Assembly (NCBI GenBank): GCA_963733035.1
Contig: CAVTBU010000005.1
Span: 1,344,001 to 1,408,000, forward strand
DNA from: Pirellulales bacterium
Lineage (GTDB): Bacteria > Planctomycetota > Planctomycetia > Pirellulales > PALSA-1355
Length of the DNA stretch: 64,000 nucleotides
Direction: 5' to 3'
Shown: piece after piece, positions 10,047-39,266 of the stretch
Position numbering within the stretch: position 1 is the first letter of the stretch
Layout of the letters: the number at the start of each line of letters is the position of its first letter
The notes under the pieces: model-generated
Databases searched by the model: none
The model's input: the letters and a program-made list of their open reading frames with translations, nothing else
Told to the model about the DNA's origin: nothing
Position numbers and translations under genes: made by a program

Positions 10047-10823
10047 ATGACCACGTCGACGCAATTCACGCCCCGCGAGTTGGCCCAATATCAGGAGGAT
10101 GGCTTCCTGCTCGTGCCGGGACTATTCGACACCCAGGAGATGCAGATCCTCCTCAACTACGCCAAGAGCGACCAGGCGCTACTTGCCGGCGCGTCGGGCC
10201 GCAAGGACGCCACGGGCCAGATCACGAAGCTCACGCTTTGGAACGAGGCTGGCGACGACCTGTACGGAATGTTCTCGCGATCACCGCGAATCGTCGATCG
10301 CATGGAACAGATTCTCGGCGGCGAGGTTTACCATTACCACACCAAGATGATGCTCAAGGAGCCGCGGGTCGGTGGAGCCTGGGAATGGCATCAGGACTAT
10401 GGCTATTGGTACCACAACGGCTGCCTGTATCCGCTGCTGGCAAGCTGCTTGATCGCCGTCGACCGAGCCACTCGCCAAAACGGCTGCCTGCAAGTGCTGA
10501 AAGGCTCGCATCGGATGGGACGCGTTGACCACGGCAAGAGCGGCGACCAGACCGGCGCTGATATGGAAGTGGTTCAGGCCGCGATGGAACGACTGGAGTT
10601 GGTTTACGTCGAGGCAAATCCGGGCGATGCGGTATTCTTCCACTGCAACCTGTTGCACCGTTCGGATCAAAACACTTCGCCCGATCCCCGCTGGTCGCTG
10701 ATTTGCTGCTACAATGCCGCCCGCAACAACCCCTACAAGGAATCGCGCCACCCTCGCTATTCGCCACTATCGAAGGTAAGCGACACGGCGATCAAGGACT
10801 GGAAGGCCCTGCCCACCGGTTAA
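10047..10823 (+). CDS. Phytanoyl-CoA dioxygenase family Fe(II)/2OG dioxygenase
   Basis: WHQDYGYW, NGCLQVLKGSH, GDAVFFHCNLLHRS. Confidence 0.93.
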   Translation: MTTSTQFTPRELAQYQEDGFLLVPGLFDTQEMQILLNYAKSDQALLAGASGRKDATGQITKLTLWNEAGDDLYGMFSRSPRIVDRMEQILGGEVYHYHTKMMLKEPRVGGAWEWHQDYGYWYHNGCLYPLLASCLIAVDRATRQNGCLQVLKGSHRMGRVDHGKSGDQTGADMEVVQAAMERLELVYVEANPGDAVFFHCNLLHRSDQNTSPDPRWSLICCYNAARNNPYKESRHPRYSPLSKVSDTAIKDWKALPTG

Positions 10824-27312: not shown

Positions 27313-27780
27313 TTAGCTCGCCTTCACGGGAATTCGCTTGGCGAGCGCTTCCTGGGCCTTCTGCAGTTTGATGTGCAAGACCCCGTCCTTATACTTGGCG
27401 TCAACGTTGTCTGGGTCGACGGCCGACGGCAGCGTCACCTCGCGGCGGAAGCTGCCGAAGCGGCGCTCCTGGTAGAGATAACCCTTCTCCTTGCGCTCTT
27501 CGCTCTCTTTCTTTTCGCCGGAAATTACCAGCGCGTTGCCGTTGATCGACAGGTCGAGTTCCTCGGGCTTCACGCCGGGGATTTCAGCCCGCACGTGGAT
27601 TTCCTTGTCGGTTTCCTCAACGTCGAGCGGCGGTCCCCAACTCGACAGTCCCCACGCACTGGCCGGCGGCGCGAAGGACTCACCGAAAAACGACTGGAAC
27701 AGCTGGTCCATCTCGTTGCGAAAACTGGCCGCCGGCACGCCGGATTGCTGTTGCTTGTGTCTCCAGGGTATCAGGCTCAT
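27313..27780 (-). CDS. Hsp20/alpha-crystallin small heat-shock protein
   Basis: PLDVEETDKE, ERRFGSFRREVTLP, AKYKDGVLHIKL. Confidence 0.95.
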   Translation of the reverse strand: MSLIPWRHKQQQSGVPAASFRNEMDQLFQSFFGESFAPPASAWGLSSWGPPLDVEETDKEIHVRAEIPGVKPEELDLSINGNALVISGEKKESEERKEKGYLYQERRFGSFRREVTLPSAVDPDNVDAKYKDGVLHIKLQKAQEALAKRIPVKAS

Positions 27781-27846
27781 ATTGTCACGCTCCTTTCTGA
27801 TACGTTTCGATTGAGAGCTTGGCAAAACTCTGGACGCAAGCAGCGG

Positions 27847-28239
27847 CTAGCTGCCGGCCTTAACCGCGATCTTGCGCGGCTTGGCGGCTTCGACCTTCGG
27901 CAGGTGCACGGTCAGCACGCCGCCGGCACACTCGGCCTGAACACCACTCACGTTGATCTGTTCGCTAACGCGAAAGGTGCGATAGAAATCGCCGATCCCG
28001 TACTCGTGCAGCAGAAAGCGCGTCCCGTCGGCGTATCGTGATGCGATTTTGCCCTGAATCGTGAGCACGCCTTCCTCGAAGTCGATGTCAATGTCCTCGC
28101 TTTTCACGCCAGGCACGTCGGCAATTAACGTCAACTCGCTTGCGGTCTCAAGAATGTCCACGTTTGGCCGATAAACCTGTCCGCTGCGAGTGCGTTCGGC
28201 GGCCTCGGCTTCGTTCTTCACGGAAGTTTCAGTTGTCAT
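27847..28239 (-). CDS. Hsp20/alpha-crystallin small heat-shock protein
   Basis: PNVDILET, ADVPGV, GVLTVHLPKVEAAKPRKI. Confidence 0.93.
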   Translation of the reverse strand: MTTETSVKNEAEAAERTRSGQVYRPNVDILETASELTLIADVPGVKSEDIDIDFEEGVLTIQGKIASRYADGTRFLLHEYGIGDFYRTFRVSEQINVSGVQAECAGGVLTVHLPKVEAAKPRKIAVKAGS

Positions 28240-28312
28240 CGGAAGGAACTCCTCTGTTGCTGGCGCCAGGCGCCAGATGTTGATTGGATTCGAAAGAGCT
28301 GCGCCCGGTCGC

Positions 28313-28774
28313 TTATTGGCCGGACGACACCTTGATCTTCTTGGGCTTGGCACTTTCGGCCTTGGGCAGTTTGATCCGCAGCACGCCGTCTGTCAGCGAG
28401 GCCTCAACCTTGCTGGCATCGACTTCGACGGGCAATCGCAAAACACGATTGAACTGCCCCGTCCCGCGTTCCTGGCGATGATAGGCCACGCCTGATTGCT
28501 GGGGTTCGCCGCGACGGCCGCGAATTGTCAAGTCTCCAGCCATGACCGAAATATCGAGGTCCTCGCTGTTGACGCCGGGCAACTCCGCCTCGGCATAGAG
28601 CGCATCCCCGTCGTCCCAAATGTTGAGCGGCGGAAAACCCCCAGCTGGGCGATCGGCAACCCAGCGCGCCGCTGGACCGTCGCCTGGCGGCGTGAAAAAA
28701 TCATGGACCAGCCGGTCCATTTCGTCGCGCAGTTGGGCCACCGGCAGCAGTGTATTGACTCGTCGAAAAACCAT
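28313..28774 (-). CDS. Hsp20/alpha-crystallin small heat-shock protein
   Basis: GAGGAGG SD; FPPLNIWDD, AELPGV, GVLRIKLPKAESAKPKKI. Confidence 0.93.
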   Translation of the reverse strand: MVFRRVNTLLPVAQLRDEMDRLVHDFFTPPGDGPAARWVADRPAGGFPPLNIWDDGDALYAEAELPGVNSEDLDISVMAGDLTIRGRRGEPQQSGVAYHRQERGTGQFNRVLRLPVEVDASKVEASLTDGVLRIKLPKAESAKPKKIKVSSGQ

Positions 28775-29051: not shown

Positions 29052-30974
29052 CTAGACTGACAATTCGTCCAGCAGTTCGTTTAATAGTTCGCCGTCGCCC
29101 ACGAGACCCGAAGCCGTCGGGGGTGCCAGCCGACTGCCTGGTGCCGAATCTAGCATTAGTGCCGCAAAGTACTGCTCGCGCGGTTGTAGACCCTTCGCGA
29201 TCGGTCCTTGCCCGGCCTCAGGTCGTGGTAGTGCGGAATCCGCCCAGGGCTTTACTCCCGGCAAAGCAGCCAGTGCCGAGGCAACCGCGGCGCGACTGCC
29301 GTCGTCCGCTGCGGTCGGAGCGGCGTCGGGCGCCGACGAAGATCCCCAATCAAGGACGCGCGTCAGGTAGCCGCCGTTGGTACGAGCGATGATTTGATCG
29401 CTCGCGTTGACCTGTCCATCTTTGTTGAAGTCGTAGGTGTTCGTAAGTGGCAGCGAGAAACCAGGATTGAGACGGGCCGCAATTTCGTCGCCCGCGTTGG
29501 TGGTGACCAGCGTCGGGGGTGAACCTTCGAAGTTGTCACCGATGCGATTGCCGTAGAAGAACACTTCACTCGTTGCGAGTCCCGTGTTGGTGTTAAAACC
29601 GCCGATCGCATCGTTCCCCTCGACGACGACCTGCAACCAACTGTTGGCGATGCTGCCGTCGGGCCAGGTGATTTCCACTCGATCCGATCCGCTGACCCCG
29701 GCGCCCGTGCGCACGGAAAATCCGCTGGGGGAGGCGGCTGGTACCCACGTGTTCACCGAGCCGTTCGTGCCGACGTTGAAGGTGAAGTCCGAGAGCGATA
29801 GCGTCGCGGGGGCGTTAACAATGTCGACCATCAATCCATTGATGCCCTTCGAGTAGCTGGAAAACGCCGACACGGGAGCCGTGCCGATTCCGTTGAAGGC
29901 AGCCTTATCCTGGGCAACCGCGCCGTCGTCCGACGCATCGATTCCGGTTCCGTTCCCATCGAAGCCAGAGTTATTGTAGAACAACCGTTCCGAAACCACC
30001 TGCGGCGCCAGGTCGGGCACAAAGCCGATTCCCGTTGGCGTGCCGATATTCGAAACCAATGTTTGGATGAAGGCGCCAGTGCCGGCATCGTACTGCTGAA
30101 TGGCGCCGTTCAAATTGTGGTCCGGAGACAATCCGACCAACAGGTTGCCACTCTCGTCGTACACCAGGCTGCTGGGTTGCGGCGGATAACCGGCCGACGA
30201 ACCCGTGCCTACCGGCGTGGTGAGATTGATGAACTGGCTGGTGCTGTCGGTGCCGACGTCGTACAGGACCACCTGATGGTGAGCGAGCGGGTCGCTGCCG
30301 AGCGTGATATCGCCGACCAGCACGTCGCCATCGGGGCGCACCAACACCGCGGCCGGGTTGATGCCGCTGAACTGTTCAATCCAGACCGTCTCGTTGCCGC
30401 CCGTGTCGTAGTGATTCAAGCCTTGATAATACAGGTCGCCCACCACCAGGCTGCCGTCCGTTTCAAAATCGAATCCCCCCGGGACGTAGCCCAGCGATAA
30501 CGTATCACTTTGTAGATACTGCTGCGTGGCCGAAGTGGTATCAAATTGAAAAATCGCGGCCGCGCCCAGGTCCGCGACATACAAGTGGCCGTTGGGTCCA
30601 AACCGCAAGGCCCCCGGCGCTTGCAGCGGCGCCGCATTCGCGTCTCCCGCGCCCAGTGCTCCCAGCAGGTTGCCCGCGGTGTCGTAGTGAAACACTTGTC
30701 CGGAAATCAAACTGCTCACATAAAACGACCCGTCGTCGGCCACGGCCATCCCTTGCACCATCCCCACCGTCGCGCTCGTCGAGACGCCGCCGGCAACGGG
30801 CTGGAATTGATCGTCGTAGCGCAGCACGCTGAGACCGCCGGTGTCATCGAACACACTGACCAGCATGTCACTGGTCAGCATCGTGCGGGTCTCGAGCAGC
30901 TCCAGGCGCGGGCTGTCGCCAACGCCGCCTGTCAACGAGGAATTCTGGCCAAACTTCGTGGTGCGTTTTTTCAT
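29052..30974 (-). CDS. Planctomycete extracellular protein: LExRxLL-type N-terminus, beta-propeller repeats, dockerin-like C-terminus
   Basis: LELLETRTMLT; PGALRFGPNGHLYVAD-type repeats; YDFNKDGQVNASD Ca-binding loop. Confidence 0.85.
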   Translation of the reverse strand: MKKRTTKFGQNSSLTGGVGDSPRLELLETRTMLTSDMLVSVFDDTGGLSVLRYDDQFQPVAGGVSTSATVGMVQGMAVADDGSFYVSSLISGQVFHYDTAGNLLGALGAGDANAAPLQAPGALRFGPNGHLYVADLGAAAIFQFDTTSATQQYLQSDTLSLGYVPGGFDFETDGSLVVGDLYYQGLNHYDTGGNETVWIEQFSGINPAAVLVRPDGDVLVGDITLGSDPLAHHQVVLYDVGTDSTSQFINLTTPVGTGSSAGYPPQPSSLVYDESGNLLVGLSPDHNLNGAIQQYDAGTGAFIQTLVSNIGTPTGIGFVPDLAPQVVSERLFYNNSGFDGNGTGIDASDDGAVAQDKAAFNGIGTAPVSAFSSYSKGINGLMVDIVNAPATLSLSDFTFNVGTNGSVNTWVPAASPSGFSVRTGAGVSGSDRVEITWPDGSIANSWLQVVVEGNDAIGGFNTNTGLATSEVFFYGNRIGDNFEGSPPTLVTTNAGDEIAARLNPGFSLPLTNTYDFNKDGQVNASDQIIARTNGGYLTRVLDWGSSSAPDAAPTAADDGSRAAVASALAALPGVKPWADSALPRPEAGQGPIAKGLQPREQYFAALMLDSAPGSRLAPPTASGLVGDGELLNELLDELSV

Positions 30975-31057
30975 GGAAGTCTCGTTCAGTTGGAAGGTGT
31001 GGCTCGCGGCCCTCAGAATTCCTGCCGACAGGAATGAATGTCCCTCGCCGAATTTTC

Positions 31058-31115
31058 TTGCACGGCGGCGAGAAAAAGCATATCCTCTAACATTCTTACG
31101 ATCGTAATAGTGTTA
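31058..31115 (+). promoter_or_regulatory. Sigma70-like promoter plus 28-bp palindromic operator
   Basis: TTGCAC-N17-TATCCT, then TAACAtTcTTACGATCGTAAtAgTGTTA (24/28 self-complementary). Confidence 0.65.
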
Positions 31116-31217
31116 ATCCCTGGCGACGGGCGATGCAAGGTGCCCGATGGAATATTTTTTCCACCCCGCCGCTCCTAAACCGCAATCGCCACTCAAGCGG
31201 CCCTATTGACCCGCGCG

Positions 31218-32250
31218 ATGGACCCCGCCATGCCCACTTCACGAAGTTGGAAGGCCACAATCGCGGGTTTCACAATGGTGGAACTGTTGGTCGTGATCGC
31301 GATCGTCGGCATTCTGGTGGGTCTGTTATTGCCGGCTATCCAAGCCGCCCGAGAAAGCGCGCGACGCACGGCGTGCGTGAATCATCTCAAGCAAATTGGC
31401 ATTGCCGCTCAGAATTTTCACGACGTCAATCGGGCGTTCCCGCCGGGAGCGGAATCGAAGCCGTATCCAAACGCTCCGTCGACGGCCTGGACCTTTTATC
31501 GCTGGTCGTCACTGGCGCATTTGGCTCCCTACTTGGAAGAGGGGAATGCCGTCAACCTGCTCGACTTGTCGGTGCCGCTGTATGGCACGACCTTTGGTGT
31601 CACTCCGCAGAATGTCGCCGGCGTGGCGCTGGTCGTCCCGTTGTTTCTCTGTCCGAGCGACCTGGCACAGGTCGTCTCGCCCGGTTTCGGACCGACGAAC
31701 TACGTCGCCTGCTCTGGCGCGGCGCGGATGGCGGAACGCCCTTCGACACCGACGGTGTCTTCTTCGTCAACTCGCGCGTCCGTTTGGCGCAGATTACCGA
31801 CGGCTCGAGTCACACGGCGCTGATGTCAGAAAGTCTGCTGGGAAACCCCAAGGGAACCCCGCTGGCGCGCGACCCGCAACTCGACTACAAGTACATCCTT
31901 GCGGCACCTTTGAATGAGAACTCCTGTAACATCTCTCCGCAATGGAACGTCTCGGACCCGCGCGGCTTTGCCTGGGTCAGTGGCGAATATCGTTGCGCTT
32001 CGTACAACCACTATTACGCGCCGAACTCCACGCTGCCGGATTGCCTGGGCACGCGATTGGGCGGCGGTCTGCAGTACAACTTTTCAGCCTACGGTTGCGC
32101 GCGGCCCGCAGTCGGCATCCTGGCGGCGTTAACCTGCTGCTGGCCGACGGCTCGGTCCGTTTCATCAACGAGGCGATTGACGTGCGACCCTGGCTGAGCC
32201 TTTCCACGCGAGAAGGGGACGAGCTACCCGCGTCGACGGAAAATCCTTAA
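31218..32250 (+). CDS. DUF1559 prepilin-like protein; frameshifts near 31720 and 32097
   Basis: [64 protein letters not shown] (H-X9-DG). Confidence 0.88.
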
Positions 32251-32277
32251 CCACGAGCACCCTCATCACGGTAAACC

Positions 32278-33063
32278 ATGACCACCGAAACGAAACGTGC
32301 CTTCGTATCTGGCGAGCAGATTACGCGATATCACACCGACGGTTACCTGATCCTGCGCGATGTGTTTCCGCCCGACGAAGTGGCGGCGCTGGCATCCGAG
32401 GCCGAAACACTCATCGGCCGGACCGAGCTTATCGACTCGGCCAACATTCGCTGTCGCTGGTCCGACCACGTCCGTACCGGCGAATGCCTGTTCGATTGTT
32501 TCGATCCGGTGATCGACATCGGCCCGGTTTGTCGCCATGTCGCCAGCGACCCGCGCATCGTGGATCCACTTAGTGCTCTCTACCGCGAGCCGGCGGTGCT
32601 CTTCAAGGATAAGTTGATTTTTAAGCGCCCGGGAGTGAAGGGGTACAATCTGCACCAGGACTATATCAGTTGGCCGGAGTTTCCTCGGAGCTTCGTCACG
32701 GTGATTCTGGCCATCGACCGAACCGACACCGAAAATGGCGGCACGGAAATCTTTCCCGGCTATCACACCCAAGGGTATCTCTCGCCTCCAGATGGCGACT
32801 ACCACGAGTTGCCTCTGGATACGATTGACGAGTCGCGAGGGATCGTGCTCGATTTGGACCCGGGCGACCTGGCGATCTTCAGCGGCTTCACTCCGCACCG
32901 CTCCGCCCCAAACACAAGCAATCGCTGGCGCCGGCAATTGTATTTAAGTTACAATCGCCAGAGCGACGGCGGCCATCAGCGTGAAGCCCATTACCGCCAG
33001 TTTCACGACTGGCTCAAAATGAAATACGCTCAGTACGGGCGCGGCGAGGTTTACTTCCAATAG
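32278..33063 (+). CDS. Phytanoyl-CoA dioxygenase family Fe(II)/2OG dioxygenase
   Basis: KDKLIFK, LHQDY, NGGTEIFPGYH, PHRSAPN, RRQLYLSYN. Confidence 0.92.
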   Translation: MTTETKRAFVSGEQITRYHTDGYLILRDVFPPDEVAALASEAETLIGRTELIDSANIRCRWSDHVRTGECLFDCFDPVIDIGPVCRHVASDPRIVDPLSALYREPAVLFKDKLIFKRPGVKGYNLHQDYISWPEFPRSFVTVILAIDRTDTENGGTEIFPGYHTQGYLSPPDGDYHELPLDTIDESRGIVLDLDPGDLAIFSGFTPHRSAPNTSNRWRRQLYLSYNRQSDGGHQREAHYRQFHDWLKMKYAQYGRGEVYFQ

Positions 33064-33143
33064 CAGTCGGCCCCCAAAACGATCATTCACCAACGGCCCG
33101 GGAACCGCTCTTTTCCGGAAACTCCTCGCGGGAGCACTGAATC

Positions 33144-34199
33144 ATGTCATCGCCCCTTCCAGTCATCGCCTCCGCAACCGACAACGGCCAGGTATTGTTT
33201 CACCTCTCGTTAAACGTCGACGATCTGACGCGCAGCGTCGACTTCTTCCGTTTGCTCTTCGATCAGCCCCCTTCGAAGCATCAGCGAGACTATGCAAAAT
33301 TCGAATTGTCCGATCCGCCGCTGGTGCTCTCGCTCGAACCGACGCGAACGCCGCGCGGCGGCAAGCTGAATCACCTAGGGTTTCGGCTGGCCAACTCCGC
33401 CGTGCTCGTCGCAATGCAAAAACGCCTTGAGCTAGGCGGCATCTCCACTTCGCGCGAGGAAGGCGTCGAGTGCTGCTACGCCCGCCAAACCAAATTCTGG
33501 GTTACCGATCCCGACGGCAATCTGTGGGAAATGTATACGTTCGAAGCCGACCTCGAGCATCGCGGAATGGGCCAGGTCCCGCGCAAATCGAACGAGTCGG
33601 TCGCGGCCTCCGATCGCTCGGCGCCGGCCCCCGCCATCTGGGCTCATCGACTCGGCGAGCCCTTCCCGGTGCGAATTTTGGCGGATTCCGACGGCGTTGA
33701 CGAAGTCTTGCTGCAAGGAACCTTCAACGCCCGCCTAACGAGCGAGCAGCGTCGCGGGCAACTGGTCGAGGTTCTGAGAATCCTGAAGCCTGCCGGCCGT
33801 GTGATGCTGCACCAGCTAACCGCGGAGCGGTCGGTCGCGACCATCCGTACTCCCCTTCCCGGCCCCGCGGTGGCCGTCGAAGCGGTTCCCACCGCCGAGG
33901 AAATCGCCGACGATCTGGCCGCGGCCGGTTTCATCCAAGTCGAATTCGAAAAGCTCGGCGACAACCCTTGTTTCAACGCCGACGGCGTCGCGTGTCGCGA
34001 AACAAAACTCATCGGCCACAAGCGGGCTCCAAGCTCGACCGGTCCTGCGCGACATGTCCTTTACAAAGGCCCATACCGACAACTCGAAGACGACCTGGGG
34101 AACCACTTCCGCCGTGGTGTCTGGACCGAGGTCGATGCCGCCACCTGGCAGTCGCTCGCCGCTTCGTCGTTGGCAGATCAATTCGCGATGCCCCGATAG
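33144..34199 (+). CDS. ArsI/CadI-family VOC metalloenzyme fused to truncated methyltransferase-like domain
   Basis: FHLSLNV, LNHLGFR, VECCYARQTKFWVTDPDGNLWE; C-terminal VLRILKPAGRV, AAGF, YKGPYRQLEDDLGNHFRRG. Confidence 0.85.
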   Translation: MSSPLPVIASATDNGQVLFHLSLNVDDLTRSVDFFRLLFDQPPSKHQRDYAKFELSDPPLVLSLEPTRTPRGGKLNHLGFRLANSAVLVAMQKRLELGGISTSREEGVECCYARQTKFWVTDPDGNLWEMYTFEADLEHRGMGQVPRKSNESVAASDRSAPAPAIWAHRLGEPFPVRILADSDGVDEVLLQGTFNARLTSEQRRGQLVEVLRILKPAGRVMLHQLTAERSVATIRTPLPGPAVAVEAVPTAEEIADDLAAAGFIQVEFEKLGDNPCFNADGVACRETKLIGHKRAPSSTGPARHVLYKGPYRQLEDDLGNHFRRGVWTEVDAATWQSLAASSLADQFAMPR

Positions 34200-34228
34200 G
34201 TCACGACCAGCGGCCAGGAGAATCGCAC

Positions 34229-34275
34229 TTGACCCAATCGATGCGCGCCACTATATTTGCTTACACGAATATGAA
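34229..34275 (+). promoter_or_regulatory. arsR promoter and probable ArsR operator
   Basis: TTGACC-N17-TATATT; imperfect palindrome ATATTTG-CTTACA-CGAATAT overlapping -10 and start codon. Confidence 0.7.
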
Positions 34276-34618
34276 AACCAAATCCGGGCCCAACGTCGAC
34301 TTGATGTTCCGAGCTTTTTCGGATCGCACGCGGTTGCGCATTTTACATATGCTCGCCAGCGGCGAATTATGCGTGTGCGACATCGTCGCCGTGCTGCGAG
34401 TTCCGCAGCCAAAAGCCTCACGACACCTGGCCTACCTGCGGAAGGCGGGTTTGGTCATGGCACGCAAGGAAGGACTTTGGAGCTACTACCGGCTGGCCCC
34501 GGCCCAAGGCACCTTCCACCGGAAACTTCTCGACTGCCTGGCTTGCTGCTTCCAGGAAGTTCCTGAGTTGGTAGCCGACGCCAAACAGATCGCCGCGCGC
34601 AAAGCCTGCCGCGGCTAA
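34271..34618 (+). CDS. arsR: ArsR/SmtB As(III)-responsive repressor
   Basis: ELCVCDI metal box, SRHLAYLRKAGLV, C-terminal CLACC. Confidence 0.92.
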   Translation: MKTKSGPNVDLMFRAFSDRTRLRILHMLASGELCVCDIVAVLRVPQPKASRHLAYLRKAGLVMARKEGLWSYYRLAPAQGTFHRKLLDCLACCFQEVPELVADAKQIAARKACRG

Positions 34619-34650
34619 AATTTTTTACCAATCTATATTCGCTTACGCGT

Positions 34651-35130
34651 ATGAATAACACGACTCCGAATCCTGAAAAGAAACTCACCGTGCTCTTCCT
34701 GTGCACCGGAAACTCCTGCCGCAGTCAGATGGCTGAAGGCTGGGCGCGGCACCTCAAGGGCGAACAGATCGAAGCCTACTCGGCCGGAATTGATCCCCAT
34801 GCACTGAACCCGTGGGCCGTGCAAGTCATGGCCGAAGCGGGCATCGATATCAGCCGGCAACGCTCACAGCACATCAACGAGTTCGAAGATGTCGAATTCG
34901 ACTACGTTGTTTCCGTATGTGATCGGGCCCGCCAATCGTGCCCGGCGCTTCCCAGCGGCAAGCACCGATTGCACGTGGCCTTTGACGATCCGCCACGCCA
35001 GGCAATCACCGCGGTGACCGACGAACAAACCCTCGCTCCGTATCGCCGCGTCCGCGACGAGATTCGCAAGTTCATTGAGGAAATGCCTGACAATCTGGCA
35101 ACTTTCTCATCAACCACTCCCGGAGGTTAA
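34651..35130 (+). CDS. arsC: Thioredoxin-coupled arsenate reductase (LMW-PTP fold)
   Basis: CTGNSCRSQMAEG, VCDRARQSCP, FDDP, VRDEI. Confidence 0.93.
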   Translation: MNNTTPNPEKKLTVLFLCTGNSCRSQMAEGWARHLKGEQIEAYSAGIDPHALNPWAVQVMAEAGIDISRQRSQHINEFEDVEFDYVVSVCDRARQSCPALPSGKHRLHVAFDDPPRQAITAVTDEQTLAPYRRVRDEIRKFIEEMPDNLATFSSTTPGG

Positions 35131-35133
35131 CTC

Positions 35134-36032
35134 ATGTCCATCGAAAAGATCGTGCAATCGAAGTACGGCGCCATGGCCACAAGCGGGCGATCGAGCGAGC
35201 ACTCCGGCGTCAAGGCGGTGGCCGAAGCGTTCGGCTATTCGCCCGAACAACTCGCCGCAATTCCGGCGGAAGCCAACATGGGGCTCTCGTGCGGCAATCC
35301 CACCGCCTTTGCAAGTCTCAAACCGGGCGAAGTGGTTGTCGACCTGGGCTCCGGCGGAGGGTTGGATGTGTTTCTCGCCGCCCAAGCGGTCGGCCCCACC
35401 GGCAAGGCAATCGGTATCGATATGACGCCCGAGATGATCGCGCTGGCCGAGACGAACAAACAGCGCTCGGGAGCCACAAACGTCGAGTTCCACCTGGCCA
35501 CGATCGACAACATGCCGTTGGCCGACGAATCGGTCGACTGCGTGATCAGCAACTGCGTGATCAATCTGGCCAGCGACAAGCCGGCCGTTTTCCGCGAAAT
35601 CGCCCGCGTACTAAAGCCCGGCGGCCGGTTGGCCGTCAGCGACATCGCGCTCAAGCGAGAGTTGCCGCCAGAGCTCAGCGAAAGTCTGGCTGCGTATGTC
35701 GGATGCGTGGCCGGTGCTATTTCAATCGACGAGTATCGCCAGGGACTGCGCGCGGCGGGTTTCGCGCACGTCGAAATCGTCGACACCGGCGCGGACTTGA
35801 ACGCCTATGCAAAGGCCGACAACCAGGCCGGTTGCTGTGCGCCGGACCCTCCGAAGCGGCGCTGCCCGTGGTTGACGGCGGCCAGGCGGAAGGCAGCTTT
35901 CCCGAGCAGCTGCGCGAGCTGATGACCAAGTATAATGTCAACGACTACGCCGCCAGCGTGAAGGTGTACGCCGTCAAGACCGCCGAGGCCGCCCAATCGT
36001 GCTGCAACCCCGTGCATGGCGAGTGCTGTTGA
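35134..36032 (+). CDS. arsM: Arsenite S-adenosylmethionine methyltransferase; frameshift near 35846
   Basis: [31 protein letters not shown]; tail [16 protein letters not shown]...SCC...ECC in shifted frame. Confidence 0.9.
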
Positions 36033-38399: not shown

Positions 38400-39266
38400 T
38401 CAACGCACCGGACGCTCGAGCATCTTTTGATGCCGCCGTCGCTGCAAAAGCAACAGCGCAGCTCCAGGGACAACCAGGGCCAGGGTGGCCGGCTCCGGCA
38501 CGACCGCCACGAAGCGCACGATGCCTTCAACGTCGGGGCGCCCGGAACTGGCCCAGCCGAGCAGCGGGTGACCCTCGCTGTCGACTGGAACGTTGAATCC
38601 CATATCATCCAAACGGACGCTCGAATTGTAGATGTTCAGAATGTACGACTTTCCGACGACGAGCGGCACGGACGGCGACCAATCAGTCGTGCCGGCCGGT
38701 ATGACGGTCGACAACACGTTGTGAAGGGGATCGCCCATTTGTGCGGTAAAAGATTGGCCGGGCGGCAGATCGAGTACGAAGTGTGGAGTCGGCGTGCTGA
38801 CGTTCGAATTGTGTATGGGTGATAGAATTACAGGCGGTGCGATGTCCGCGGCCGTGAGCAAGCCCAAGTTCGGTGTCATTTGATAGTGCCGCTCGGTTGG
38901 AAGTCCCTGGTCGATGTTGAAGTACCAGGCTTGGTCGAGCGAGGTCACGAACTGGTTGAAGTCGACGAACGCGGGCGGGGGGTCGAACGTCCAACCTCCG
39001 TATTCCGTATGGACTCGATATTGACCGTCTTGGCTGACGATCTCGCCCGACGCAAAGTCCAACTGTTGGCCACCCGGAAAAAACTCCGGATAGGCATAGC
39101 CTCGGTAAGTCGTCACGCCGTTGACGTTCTCGGCGCGCAGGTCAAGATCGACGCGCACCTCGGCGATTGACGTCGTCCGAGTGCCGAAAATAAAGAGGAG
39201 AGTCGCCGCACATCCAAGGACCTTCGATGTAACTAAATTCCGACGCAGCATGATTGCGAACCCCAT
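38400..39266 (-). CDS. PEP-CTERM sorting-domain protein
   Basis: N-terminal signal peptide; C-terminal VPEPATLALVVPGAALLLLQRRRH. Confidence 0.87.
   Translation of the reverse strand: MGFAIMLRRNLVTSKVLGCAATLLFIFGTRTTSIAEVRVDLDLRAENVNGVTTYRGYAYPEFFPGGQQLDFASGEIVSQDGQYRVHTEYGGWTFDPPPAFVDFNQFVTSLDQAWYFNIDQGLPTERHYQMTPNLGLLTAADIAPPVILSPIHNSNVSTPTPHFVLDLPPGQSFTAQMGDPLHNVLSTVIPAGTTDWSPSVPLVVGKSYILNIYNSSVRLDDMGFNVPVDSEGHPLLGWASSGRPDVEGIVRFVAVVPEPATLALVVPGAALLLLQRRRHQKMLERPVR

Follow-up and report, generated by a model that had tools for sequence, protein, structure and literature searches.

Between positions 29052 and 36032 of the window (the whole stretch of 64,000 nucleotides that was analyzed, from a Pirellulales genome of 6.6 Mb in 10 contigs, 92% complete and labelled G000 here), six co-oriented genes and a divergent seventh raise the question of whether they work together on an organoarsenical. 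The original prediction took the six, which code for a DUF1559 protein, a PhyH-family Fe(II)/2-oxoglutarate (Fe/2OG) dioxygenase, a fusion protein resembling the C-As lyase ArsI, ArsR, ArsC and ArsM, as one system that handles, makes or scavenges such a compound. All seven genes were recovered where they had been placed, by open reading frames (ORFs) as well as profile matches, and DUF1559, PhyH and the fusion were found to be a conserved, co-regulated unit. The larger six-gene system, however, did not withstand the linkage data, the related genomes and the finding of a separate promoter-like site and operator. The locus is made up of two units: a resident arsR-arsC-arsM operon and, to its left, a separately conserved module. 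The best explanation for the four genes on the left is that they are a form of a conserved planctomycete module lacking its major facilitator superfamily (MFS) transporter, and we lean towards the view that this module acquires and dismantles an organoarsenical with alkyl groups on arsenic.

The module was followed through relatives of the fusion, 1770 of which were found among 8000 candidates scored. Out of 287 genome loci and 395 metagenome loci, the best 80 of each were examined; pooled with 27 further genome regions and collapsed at 90% identity, they gave 155 clusters, and the 91 with at least 5 kb of upstream DNA were used for gene-content counts. These clusters are partly kin and not independent, so that mutual exclusions among genes partly reflect lineage. 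The fusion was accompanied by PhyH in 86 of the 91 clusters (and in 72 of the 80 genome loci), by an MFS transporter in 76, by DUF1559 in 57, by a three-cysteine, GCC-type ArsR (ArsR*) in 42, by a TonB-dependent receptor in 16 and by a propeller protein in 9. Eight of the nine clusters with a propeller gene lacked the MFS gene, as does the window; overall, the MFS gene was missing in 15 clusters. DUF1559 and the TonB-dependent receptor never occurred together, and 18 clusters had neither at the thresholds used. Linkage was checked without bias in 151 genomes sampled evenly from the order. They held 31 copies of the PhyH subfamily in 29 genomes, with 28 copies lying at most 3 kb from a fusion (a hand count in which two of the fusions were in pieces); two of the other three copies are near a contig edge, and the third has its fusion on another contig. 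One genome of the sample, G536, has fusions without PhyH. The full fusion was rarer across the phylum than within the order, being present in 4 of 401 genomes, G000 included.

Linkage of the PhyH-fusion pair to ars genes was largely missing from the same loci, which is one of the outcomes that the original prediction had named as counting against it. Neither arsC nor a true arsM was near the fusion in any of the 80 genome loci; the 11 arsM matches recorded there were all weak (50 bits or less), and 9 of them were the fusion's own C-terminal half. Among the 126 pooled clusters with 1 kb of downstream DNA, a true arsM followed the fusion in three, which are mutually 81–85% identical and amount to one lineage. 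In this lineage arsR-arsM lies directly downstream of the fusion, and the ArsR of the two loci examined is unlike that of the window. This single independent juxtaposition lends mild support to an arsenic link. An arsM-like match was present in 25 of 32 genomes of the family, in most cases next to the same arsR. G402 and G403, which belong to the same genus, have arsRCM-rsmG and no module, and in G409 and G416 hsp20 directly adjoins arsR-(arsC)-arsM-rsmG, again with the module absent. Because hsp20 abuts arsR in these last two genomes, the 5.1 kb at 29052–34199 of the window represents an insert between hsp20 and arsR. The window has three tandem Hsp20 genes at 27313–28774, at the left edge of the insertion; their counterparts in G409 and G416 are divergent from arsR. 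No island was visible in the GC profile of the stretch. In G403, hsp20 is followed by the secreted-protein gene, DUF1559 and a thymidylate-kinase-like ORF (labelled by eye) without an operator. G432 carries both units on one contig, 3.7 Mb apart.

The right-hand unit qualifies as an ars resistance operon, with an arsR that has its own operator followed by arsC and arsM, all kept in relatives. A promoter-like site (TTGACC-17-TATATT) and an ars-type operator occupy 34229–34273 on the plus strand; the inverted repeat overlapping this promoter-like site is kept in G402 and G409, has a second copy before arsC and differs from the operator of the module. The genes, all on the plus strand, are arsR (34271–34618; Cys34, Cys36 and C-terminal Cys89, 92 and 93), arsC (34651–35130), coding for an arsenate reductase of the low-molecular-weight phosphatase, thioredoxin-dependent type (PF01451; TIGR02691 at 143 bits, below the cut-off of 174; Cys18, 23, 90 and 97), and arsM (35134–36032), coding for a short-type arsenite methyltransferase (NF008823, 294 bits, cut-off 263). 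The original prediction was correct that the cluster has no efflux gene, and neither arsB, acr3 nor arsP was found in the whole genome, arsK not being among the genes searched for; the best MFS match in the genome is 23% identical. The lack of a pump is ordinary: 10 of 12 genomes of the family have no acr3, and a pump-less arsRMC operon is described in the portion of PMC11868830 available to us.

We take arsenic to be the target of the module because the fusion has a complete ArsI site, its C-terminal half is nearest to ArsM proteins of arsenosugar clusters, and ArsR* has an invariant Cys pair together with Cys16. The fusion (33144–34199, plus strand; NF041414, 132 bits, cut-off 116) comprises an ArsI domain (aa 17–137) and an ArsM-derived part (aa about 165–350). 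The top PDB sequence match of the N-terminal domain was Thermomonospora curvata ArsI (E 8e-33). The Fe ligands Gln/His8, His65 and Glu117 of that enzyme correspond to H20, H77 and E129 (conserved in 77, 76 and 77 of 77 fusions), its vicinal Cys98-Cys99 site to C110-C111 (77 and 72 of 77), and its Tyr38, Gln103 and Lys105 to Y50 (76/77), Q115 (77/77) and K117 (77/77). Judged by alignment, the fusion keeps every known ArsI catalytic residue, as these are defined in the accessible parts of PMC6138428 and PMC12607644. Five copies (L047, L088, L107, L108 and L109) have Cys-Gly for Cys-Cys, and each stands first in a tandem pair, upstream of a copy with Cys-Cys. The Cys-Gly copies are candidate lyases or binders for di-substituted arsenicals, and a tandem of both types would suit di- and mono-substituted arsenicals.

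The fusion's C-terminal domain corresponds to the C-terminal two-thirds of a long ArsM. AS3MT and CmArsM were matched by sequence and by fold (Foldseek E about 1e-9), hhalign aligned the domain to the long ArsM of arsenosugar clusters (probability 99.6, 171 columns), and its best NCBIfam model is that of arsinothricin ArsM. Its closest full-length relatives found in the order (6 of 8 regions fetched) include copies beside ArsS and arsenosugar glycosyltransferases, as confirmed in locus L320. Pirellulales arsenosugar clusters with a long ArsM, ArsS and a TIGR04282/04283 glycosyltransferase were seen at L320:5590-10800 and, by eye, in L322 and L324; ArsS occurs in 28 of the 151 genomes of the order. 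The S-adenosylmethionine (SAM)-binding motif I is present in none of the 77 fusions, the region aligned by hhalign beginning past it, and the equivalents of the arsenic-binding residues Cys174 and Cys224 are lost: the first is G192 in 76 of 77, and the second site is a Pro/Ala stretch without Cys. Because the SAM motif and both arsenic-binding Cys are gone, the fused ArsM part cannot methylate. Biosynthesis by the fusion was rejected on the same grounds; the original idea of an organoarsenical as substrate stands as the best reading. ArsS was found neither in the genome nor among conserved neighbours (ArsL was not searched for), and no full-length match to the fusion was present among the 163 records matched in plasmid searches.

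The operator of the module is a 24-bp palindrome at 31090–31113, between DUF1559 and the divergent gene for the 640-aa protein. When 97 loci, window included, were scored with a matrix seeded with the window's site, the palindrome was found before the module in 49; scores above 16 bits occurred in 0 of 153 shuffled regions and nowhere in the control loci (37, 211 kb). A genome scan using a matrix made without the window and its near-twin, returned 31090–31113 as the best site in the genome, with 33.4 bits versus 20.0 for the next. A variant of the operator was visible by eye in many of the remaining loci. Variants of this kind were noted between ArsR* and DUF1559 in L066, L074, L075, L078, L081, L083, L193, L211 and L231. 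The palindrome is probably the binding site of ArsR*, a suggestion that comes from their co-location: the operator is within 1.5 kb in 12 of 30 ArsR* loci, and 49 of the 151 genomes sampled from the order have ArsR*, among them 28 of the 29 that carry the module. In this genome ArsR* is encoded on contig C7 (C7:533081-533398), alone behind murA with no operator nearby; the same murA-adjacent site is the module's position in L031 and L033. Cys16, in the first helix, and G102-C103-C104 are invariant in 17 ArsR* sequences, and a C-terminal vicinal Cys site is present. According to the portions of PMC11868830 and PMC8960804 available, C-terminal Cys pairs bind trivalent arsenic (As(III)) or trivalent methylarsenic (MAs(III)) in AfArsR and SpArsR. 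The ESM Atlas annotation offered 'planctomycete ArsR' for the regulator and 'methyltransferase-like', and nothing further. Besides the module, the operator precedes genes for TonB, a MIP channel and a CobW-like GTPase, and once a DUF1559-fusion-fusion-phnD/C/E/E series. At L296:9250-11300 and in L297, L298 and L299 it stands before a MIP channel and/or CobW-like GTPase gene where the module is absent.

The dioxygenase encoded at 32278–33063 (plus strand; PF05721, 97 bits) has an intact Fe/2OG site, with the H126-D128-H207 triad and the 2OG-binding R218 invariant in 45 sequences; Arg60 is invariant as well. Its structural model, of PhyH fold (mean predicted local distance difference test score, pLDDT, 95.6) was best matched by the proline hydroxylase 7dzz (Z 25.2, root-mean-square deviation 2.3, 220 residues aligned), and TmpA and PhnY were not among the structural matches listed. 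By sequence, its best NCBIfam match is the methylphosphonate hydroxylase NF052437, whose cut-off of 500 lies far above the 82 and 90 bits scored, and the protein belongs to a module-specific subfamily related to the PhnY/PhnY* phosphonate hydroxylases. A search of 301 genomes of the phylum for true PhnY* gave one sub-threshold protein only. No phnZ was seen in the window or among the conserved neighbour clusters, though no profile search for it was made. Matches to PhyH in plasmid searches were distant (the best 25–32% identical), the one in Nostoc having no arsenic neighbours, and the GNAT and aldo-keto reductase partners fused to distant relatives were uninformative. A second, distant PhyH-family gene (24% identical) lies at about 10047–10757 of the window.

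On the outside of the cell, the module in this strain would be represented by two proteins. The DUF1559 prepilin-like protein (about 31230–32250, plus strand; three PF07596 pieces, start codon uncertain) has the N-methylation motif and the H-X9-DG motif. The broken window copy was replaced by that of G403 (76–78% identical) in a tree, where 39 of 40 module-adjacent DUF1559 proteins formed a single clade (support 0.87) and 13 paralogues from this genome fell outside it. The portion of PMC2754498 available to us records that the DUF1559 family was once proposed to bind solutes. The divergent gene (29052–30974, minus strand) codes for a 640-aa protein with a beta-propeller-like N-terminal domain and a C-terminal domain (window 29350–30000) that tblastn matched 25 times in the genome and for which Pfam has no name; the latter is probably a shared anchoring or export domain. 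Weak NHL/SGL/ScyF matches, this repeated domain and an N-terminus that we take to be a planctomycete motif make it a putative secreted or surface protein. It belongs to the left-hand unit as an accessory member of the form without MFS, as close homologues of its N-terminal domain (39–75% identical) adjoin the module or its DUF1559 in L031, L032, L033, L186 and L170. Taken together, the module has an uptake signature, because DUF1559 and the TonB-dependent receptor replace each other, a PhnD/C/E/E importer follows the fusions in L304, and MIP channels are found at the operator (L278, L286 and L292). The L304 locus (L304:3067-10170) holds the operator, DUF1559, two fusions and the complete PhnD/C/E/E-type ATP-binding cassette (ABC) importer, and no PhyH gene.

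How might such a module work? We tentatively propose, as a possible specific route for dimethylarsinate (DMA) or an arsenosugar, active import through a TonB-dependent receptor or a pilin-like DUF1559 binder, followed by aerobic demethylation in two steps, Fe/2OG-dependent C-hydroxylation to MAs(III) and then ArsI cleavage. The substrate would be DMA itself or the dimethylarsinoyl or methylarsinoyl group of an arsenosugar or arsinothricin-like compound. Binding of a trivalent arsenical to ArsR* would release the palindrome at 31090–31113 and allow transcription of both divergent units. The compound would then be captured by surface components, here DUF1559 and the propeller protein and in relatives a TonB-dependent receptor, MFS transporter or PhnD-type ABC importer. 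By analogy to PhnY, the Fe/2OG enzyme may hydroxylate a carbon on pentavalent arsenic, giving a product whose decay would yield an aldehyde together with a trivalent arsenical that has one alkyl group, for example MAs(III). The ArsI domain, whose residues are all in place, would bind this arsenical at Cys110-Cys111 and, using Fe(II) and O2, cleave the one C-As bond that is left. The dead domain derived from ArsM may serve in binding or as a scaffold. Because ArsI acts on trivalent species, this scheme explains why PhyH and the fusion travel together. The neighbouring arsR-arsC-arsM operon, which is outside the module, may in this strain deal with the arsenic that is set free.

Several observations weigh against this proposal. 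The dioxygenase is only 26% identical to a PhnY-like protein, with which it shares an FK(D/E)K..FK.PG motif; it lacks the C-terminal basic motif of that protein (the Arg of SRVEK is lost); its position 74 is small and neutral (Cys74 here) where the PhnY-like protein has Arg and most sister families Arg or Lys; and the structures that match it best are those of proline and ectoine hydroxylases. PhyH is missing from 5 of the 91 clusters, and 21 of the 49 genomes with ArsR* have no PhyH gene. The nearest solved relatives of ArsR* by sequence are the metal sensors NmtR, SmtB and CzrA, and the presence of the operator before a CobW-like GTPase gene and, once, divergent from a Mn/Zn ABC transporter fits a metal regulon. 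By hand counts in the 151-genome sample, acr3 is not tied to the module (9 of 29 carriers vs 31 of 122 non-carriers), nor is ArsS, which is at about background (4 of 29 vs 24 of 122); a genome-level link of the module to arsenosugar producers or acr3 carriers was accordingly discarded. Free DMA as the substrate would create a futile cycle, since the genome has ArsM. The genome has no acr3, arsB or arsP that could be found, and 20 of the 29 module genomes lack acr3. The hydroxylation step calls for a breakdown of alpha-hydroxy arsonates that is general chemical background. The portions of PMC13728944 and PMC9043123 that were accessible do not confirm it.

The strongest alternative, which we nevertheless regard as doubtful, is that the module serves defence only, with ArsI cleaving, the MFS transporter exporting and the dioxygenase inactivating organoarsenical antibiotics such as MAs(III) and arsinothricin while the surface proteins sequester them. 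ArsI is known to confer resistance to MAs(III) (PMC6138428, as far as available), the preference of the C-terminal half for the arsinothricin ArsM model would fit, an ArsR-type repressor is typical of detoxification, and MIP channels are part of the regulon. On the other hand, the TonB-dependent receptor with TonB (16/91 clusters) and the PhnD-type ABC importer are import machines, and the presumed exporter is missing from the window and from the 15 clusters mentioned above.

A regulon for a metal or another metalloid is unlikely. Here ArsR* would sense a thiophilic metal, the receptor and ABC transporter would import a metal chelate, and the ArsI-like domain would be CadI-like with a non-arsenic target; NF041414 indeed spans both ArsI and CadI, and the receptor scores as a siderophore-type one. 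In addition to the metal sensors among the solved relatives of ArsR*, the operator stands before a CobW/HypB-like GTPase gene in L296 and L297 (after the MIP gene), L299 and L309, and it is L312 in which it is divergent from the Mn/Zn transporter. Such a function does not account for the retention of all ArsI catalytic residues or for a fused domain derived from an arsenic methyltransferase. Furthermore, no chelator synthetase occurs among the conserved neighbour clusters, the genome has one strong operator only, unlike a metal-starvation regulon, and ArsR-family repressors usually leave DNA upon ligand binding, which suits substrate induction.

Phosphonate or phosphinate catabolism, with a PhnY-like hydroxylase, a vicinal oxygen chelate (VOC) enzyme in place of PhnZ, and phosphonate importers, is improbable. 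The best named relatives of the dioxygenase are PhnY and PhnY*, and PhnD/C/E/E follows the fusions in L304; however, that locus has no PhyH gene, the Arg of the SRVEK motif is gone, a vicinal-Cys site binds trivalent arsenic and not phosphorus, the regulator is a Cys-rich ArsR, and clustering gave no PhnZ-like neighbour, a result obtained without a PhnZ profile search. Finally, a six-gene operon making or recycling an organoarsenical, in which ArsC and ArsM would supply PhyH and the fusion, has in its favor the shared orientation, the 71-bp gap in the window and the one lineage with arsR-arsM downstream, and was rejected as very improbable given the 0/80 linkage, the distance between the units in G432, their separate operators, the dead fused methyltransferase and the failure to find ArsS in the genome.

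Two of the genes discussed above are interrupted in the assembly. DUF1559 is in three pieces, with frame breaks near 31720 and 32096, and arsM is broken near 35841; the original prediction did not mention these breaks. Intact homologues cross all three positions without interruption, and in two public soil runs one extra base is found at exactly 31720, 32096 and 35841, on single contigs of depth 2–4 from related strains. By these comparisons the breaks are most likely assembly errors, and because homologues read through and the soil contigs carry the extra base at each break, the genes were treated as intact; their being pseudogenes was judged less likely. Two genomes of the same genus have unbroken arsM copies of 303 aa, with which the window arsM shares 82–87% identity. 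Further to the right, at 38400–39266, is a gene for a secreted-looking protein with a VPEP-type sorting motif at its end and no Pfam match, among neighbours that look like sulfate assimilation genes (labelled by eye).

The interest of the locus resides in the four-gene module, not in its place beside an ars operon. ArsI accounts for the last methyl group lost from MAs(III), and the module offers a candidate O2-dependent enzyme for the first methyl of di-substituted arsenicals, one that 29 of the 151 genomes sampled from an order common in soil and water possess. The available part of PMC10579292 describes as unclear how DMA is demethylated, and that of bioRxiv 10.64898/2026.08.27.747368 gives only the ArsI and methanogen routes. 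The analysis also defines a new ArsR with three cysteines, together with its operator, and ties a clade of DUF1559, a large planctomycete family, to a slot filled by a TonB-dependent receptor in sister loci. If the proposed function is correct, the module would be the first dedicated organoarsenical scavenging pathway, would contain the missing aerobic DMA demethylase and would provide the first ligand class for the DUF1559 clade. The component families were already known; what is apparently new is the fusion of ArsI to a dead ArsM, the combination of this fusion with importers and a PhnY-like enzyme, and the regulator together with the operator. No description of the module was found in the literature searched, most subscription journals and supplements being outside its coverage.

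Several known systems resemble parts of the locus. On the right, the arsRMC operon of Arsenicibacter rosenii (PMC11868830, seen in part) likewise combines arsR, arsC and arsM and has no pump gene within that trio, as at 34271–36032; gene order and ArsR type differ, and the likeness extends to the right half of the locus only. AfArsR and SpArsR share a C-terminal Cys site with ArsR*, which ends in an invariant Cys-Cys; unlike them, ArsR* has a third invariant Cys in its first helix, and they are not its closest PDB relatives. The long ArsM of arsenosugar (ArsM-ArsS-glycosyltransferase) and arsinothricin (arsQML) clusters is the ancestor of the fusion's C-terminal half; unlike those clusters, the module has no radical SAM enzyme, SAM motif or arsenic-binding Cys, and its direction is degradative. 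The VOC fold, Fe ligands, vicinal Cys pair and Tyr/Gln/Lys second shell of ArsI from Bacillus MD1 and Thermomonospora curvata (PDB 5CB9) are all in the fusion, which differs in being joined to a dead ArsM part, in the single-Cys copy added at some loci, and in a context that is not an ars efflux operon but a catabolic-looking module with an Fe/2OG enzyme and importers. The module resembles the PhnY*/PhnZ pathway of Gimesia maris and Prochlorococcus (PMC6581173, in the portion available), where an Fe/2OG hydroxylase works with another non-heme iron oxygenase, which breaks a carbon-heteroatom bond, beside importers. It departs from that pathway in having ArsI as the second enzyme, a hydroxylase that scores 82 bits against the cut-off of 500, and control by a Cys-rich ArsR.

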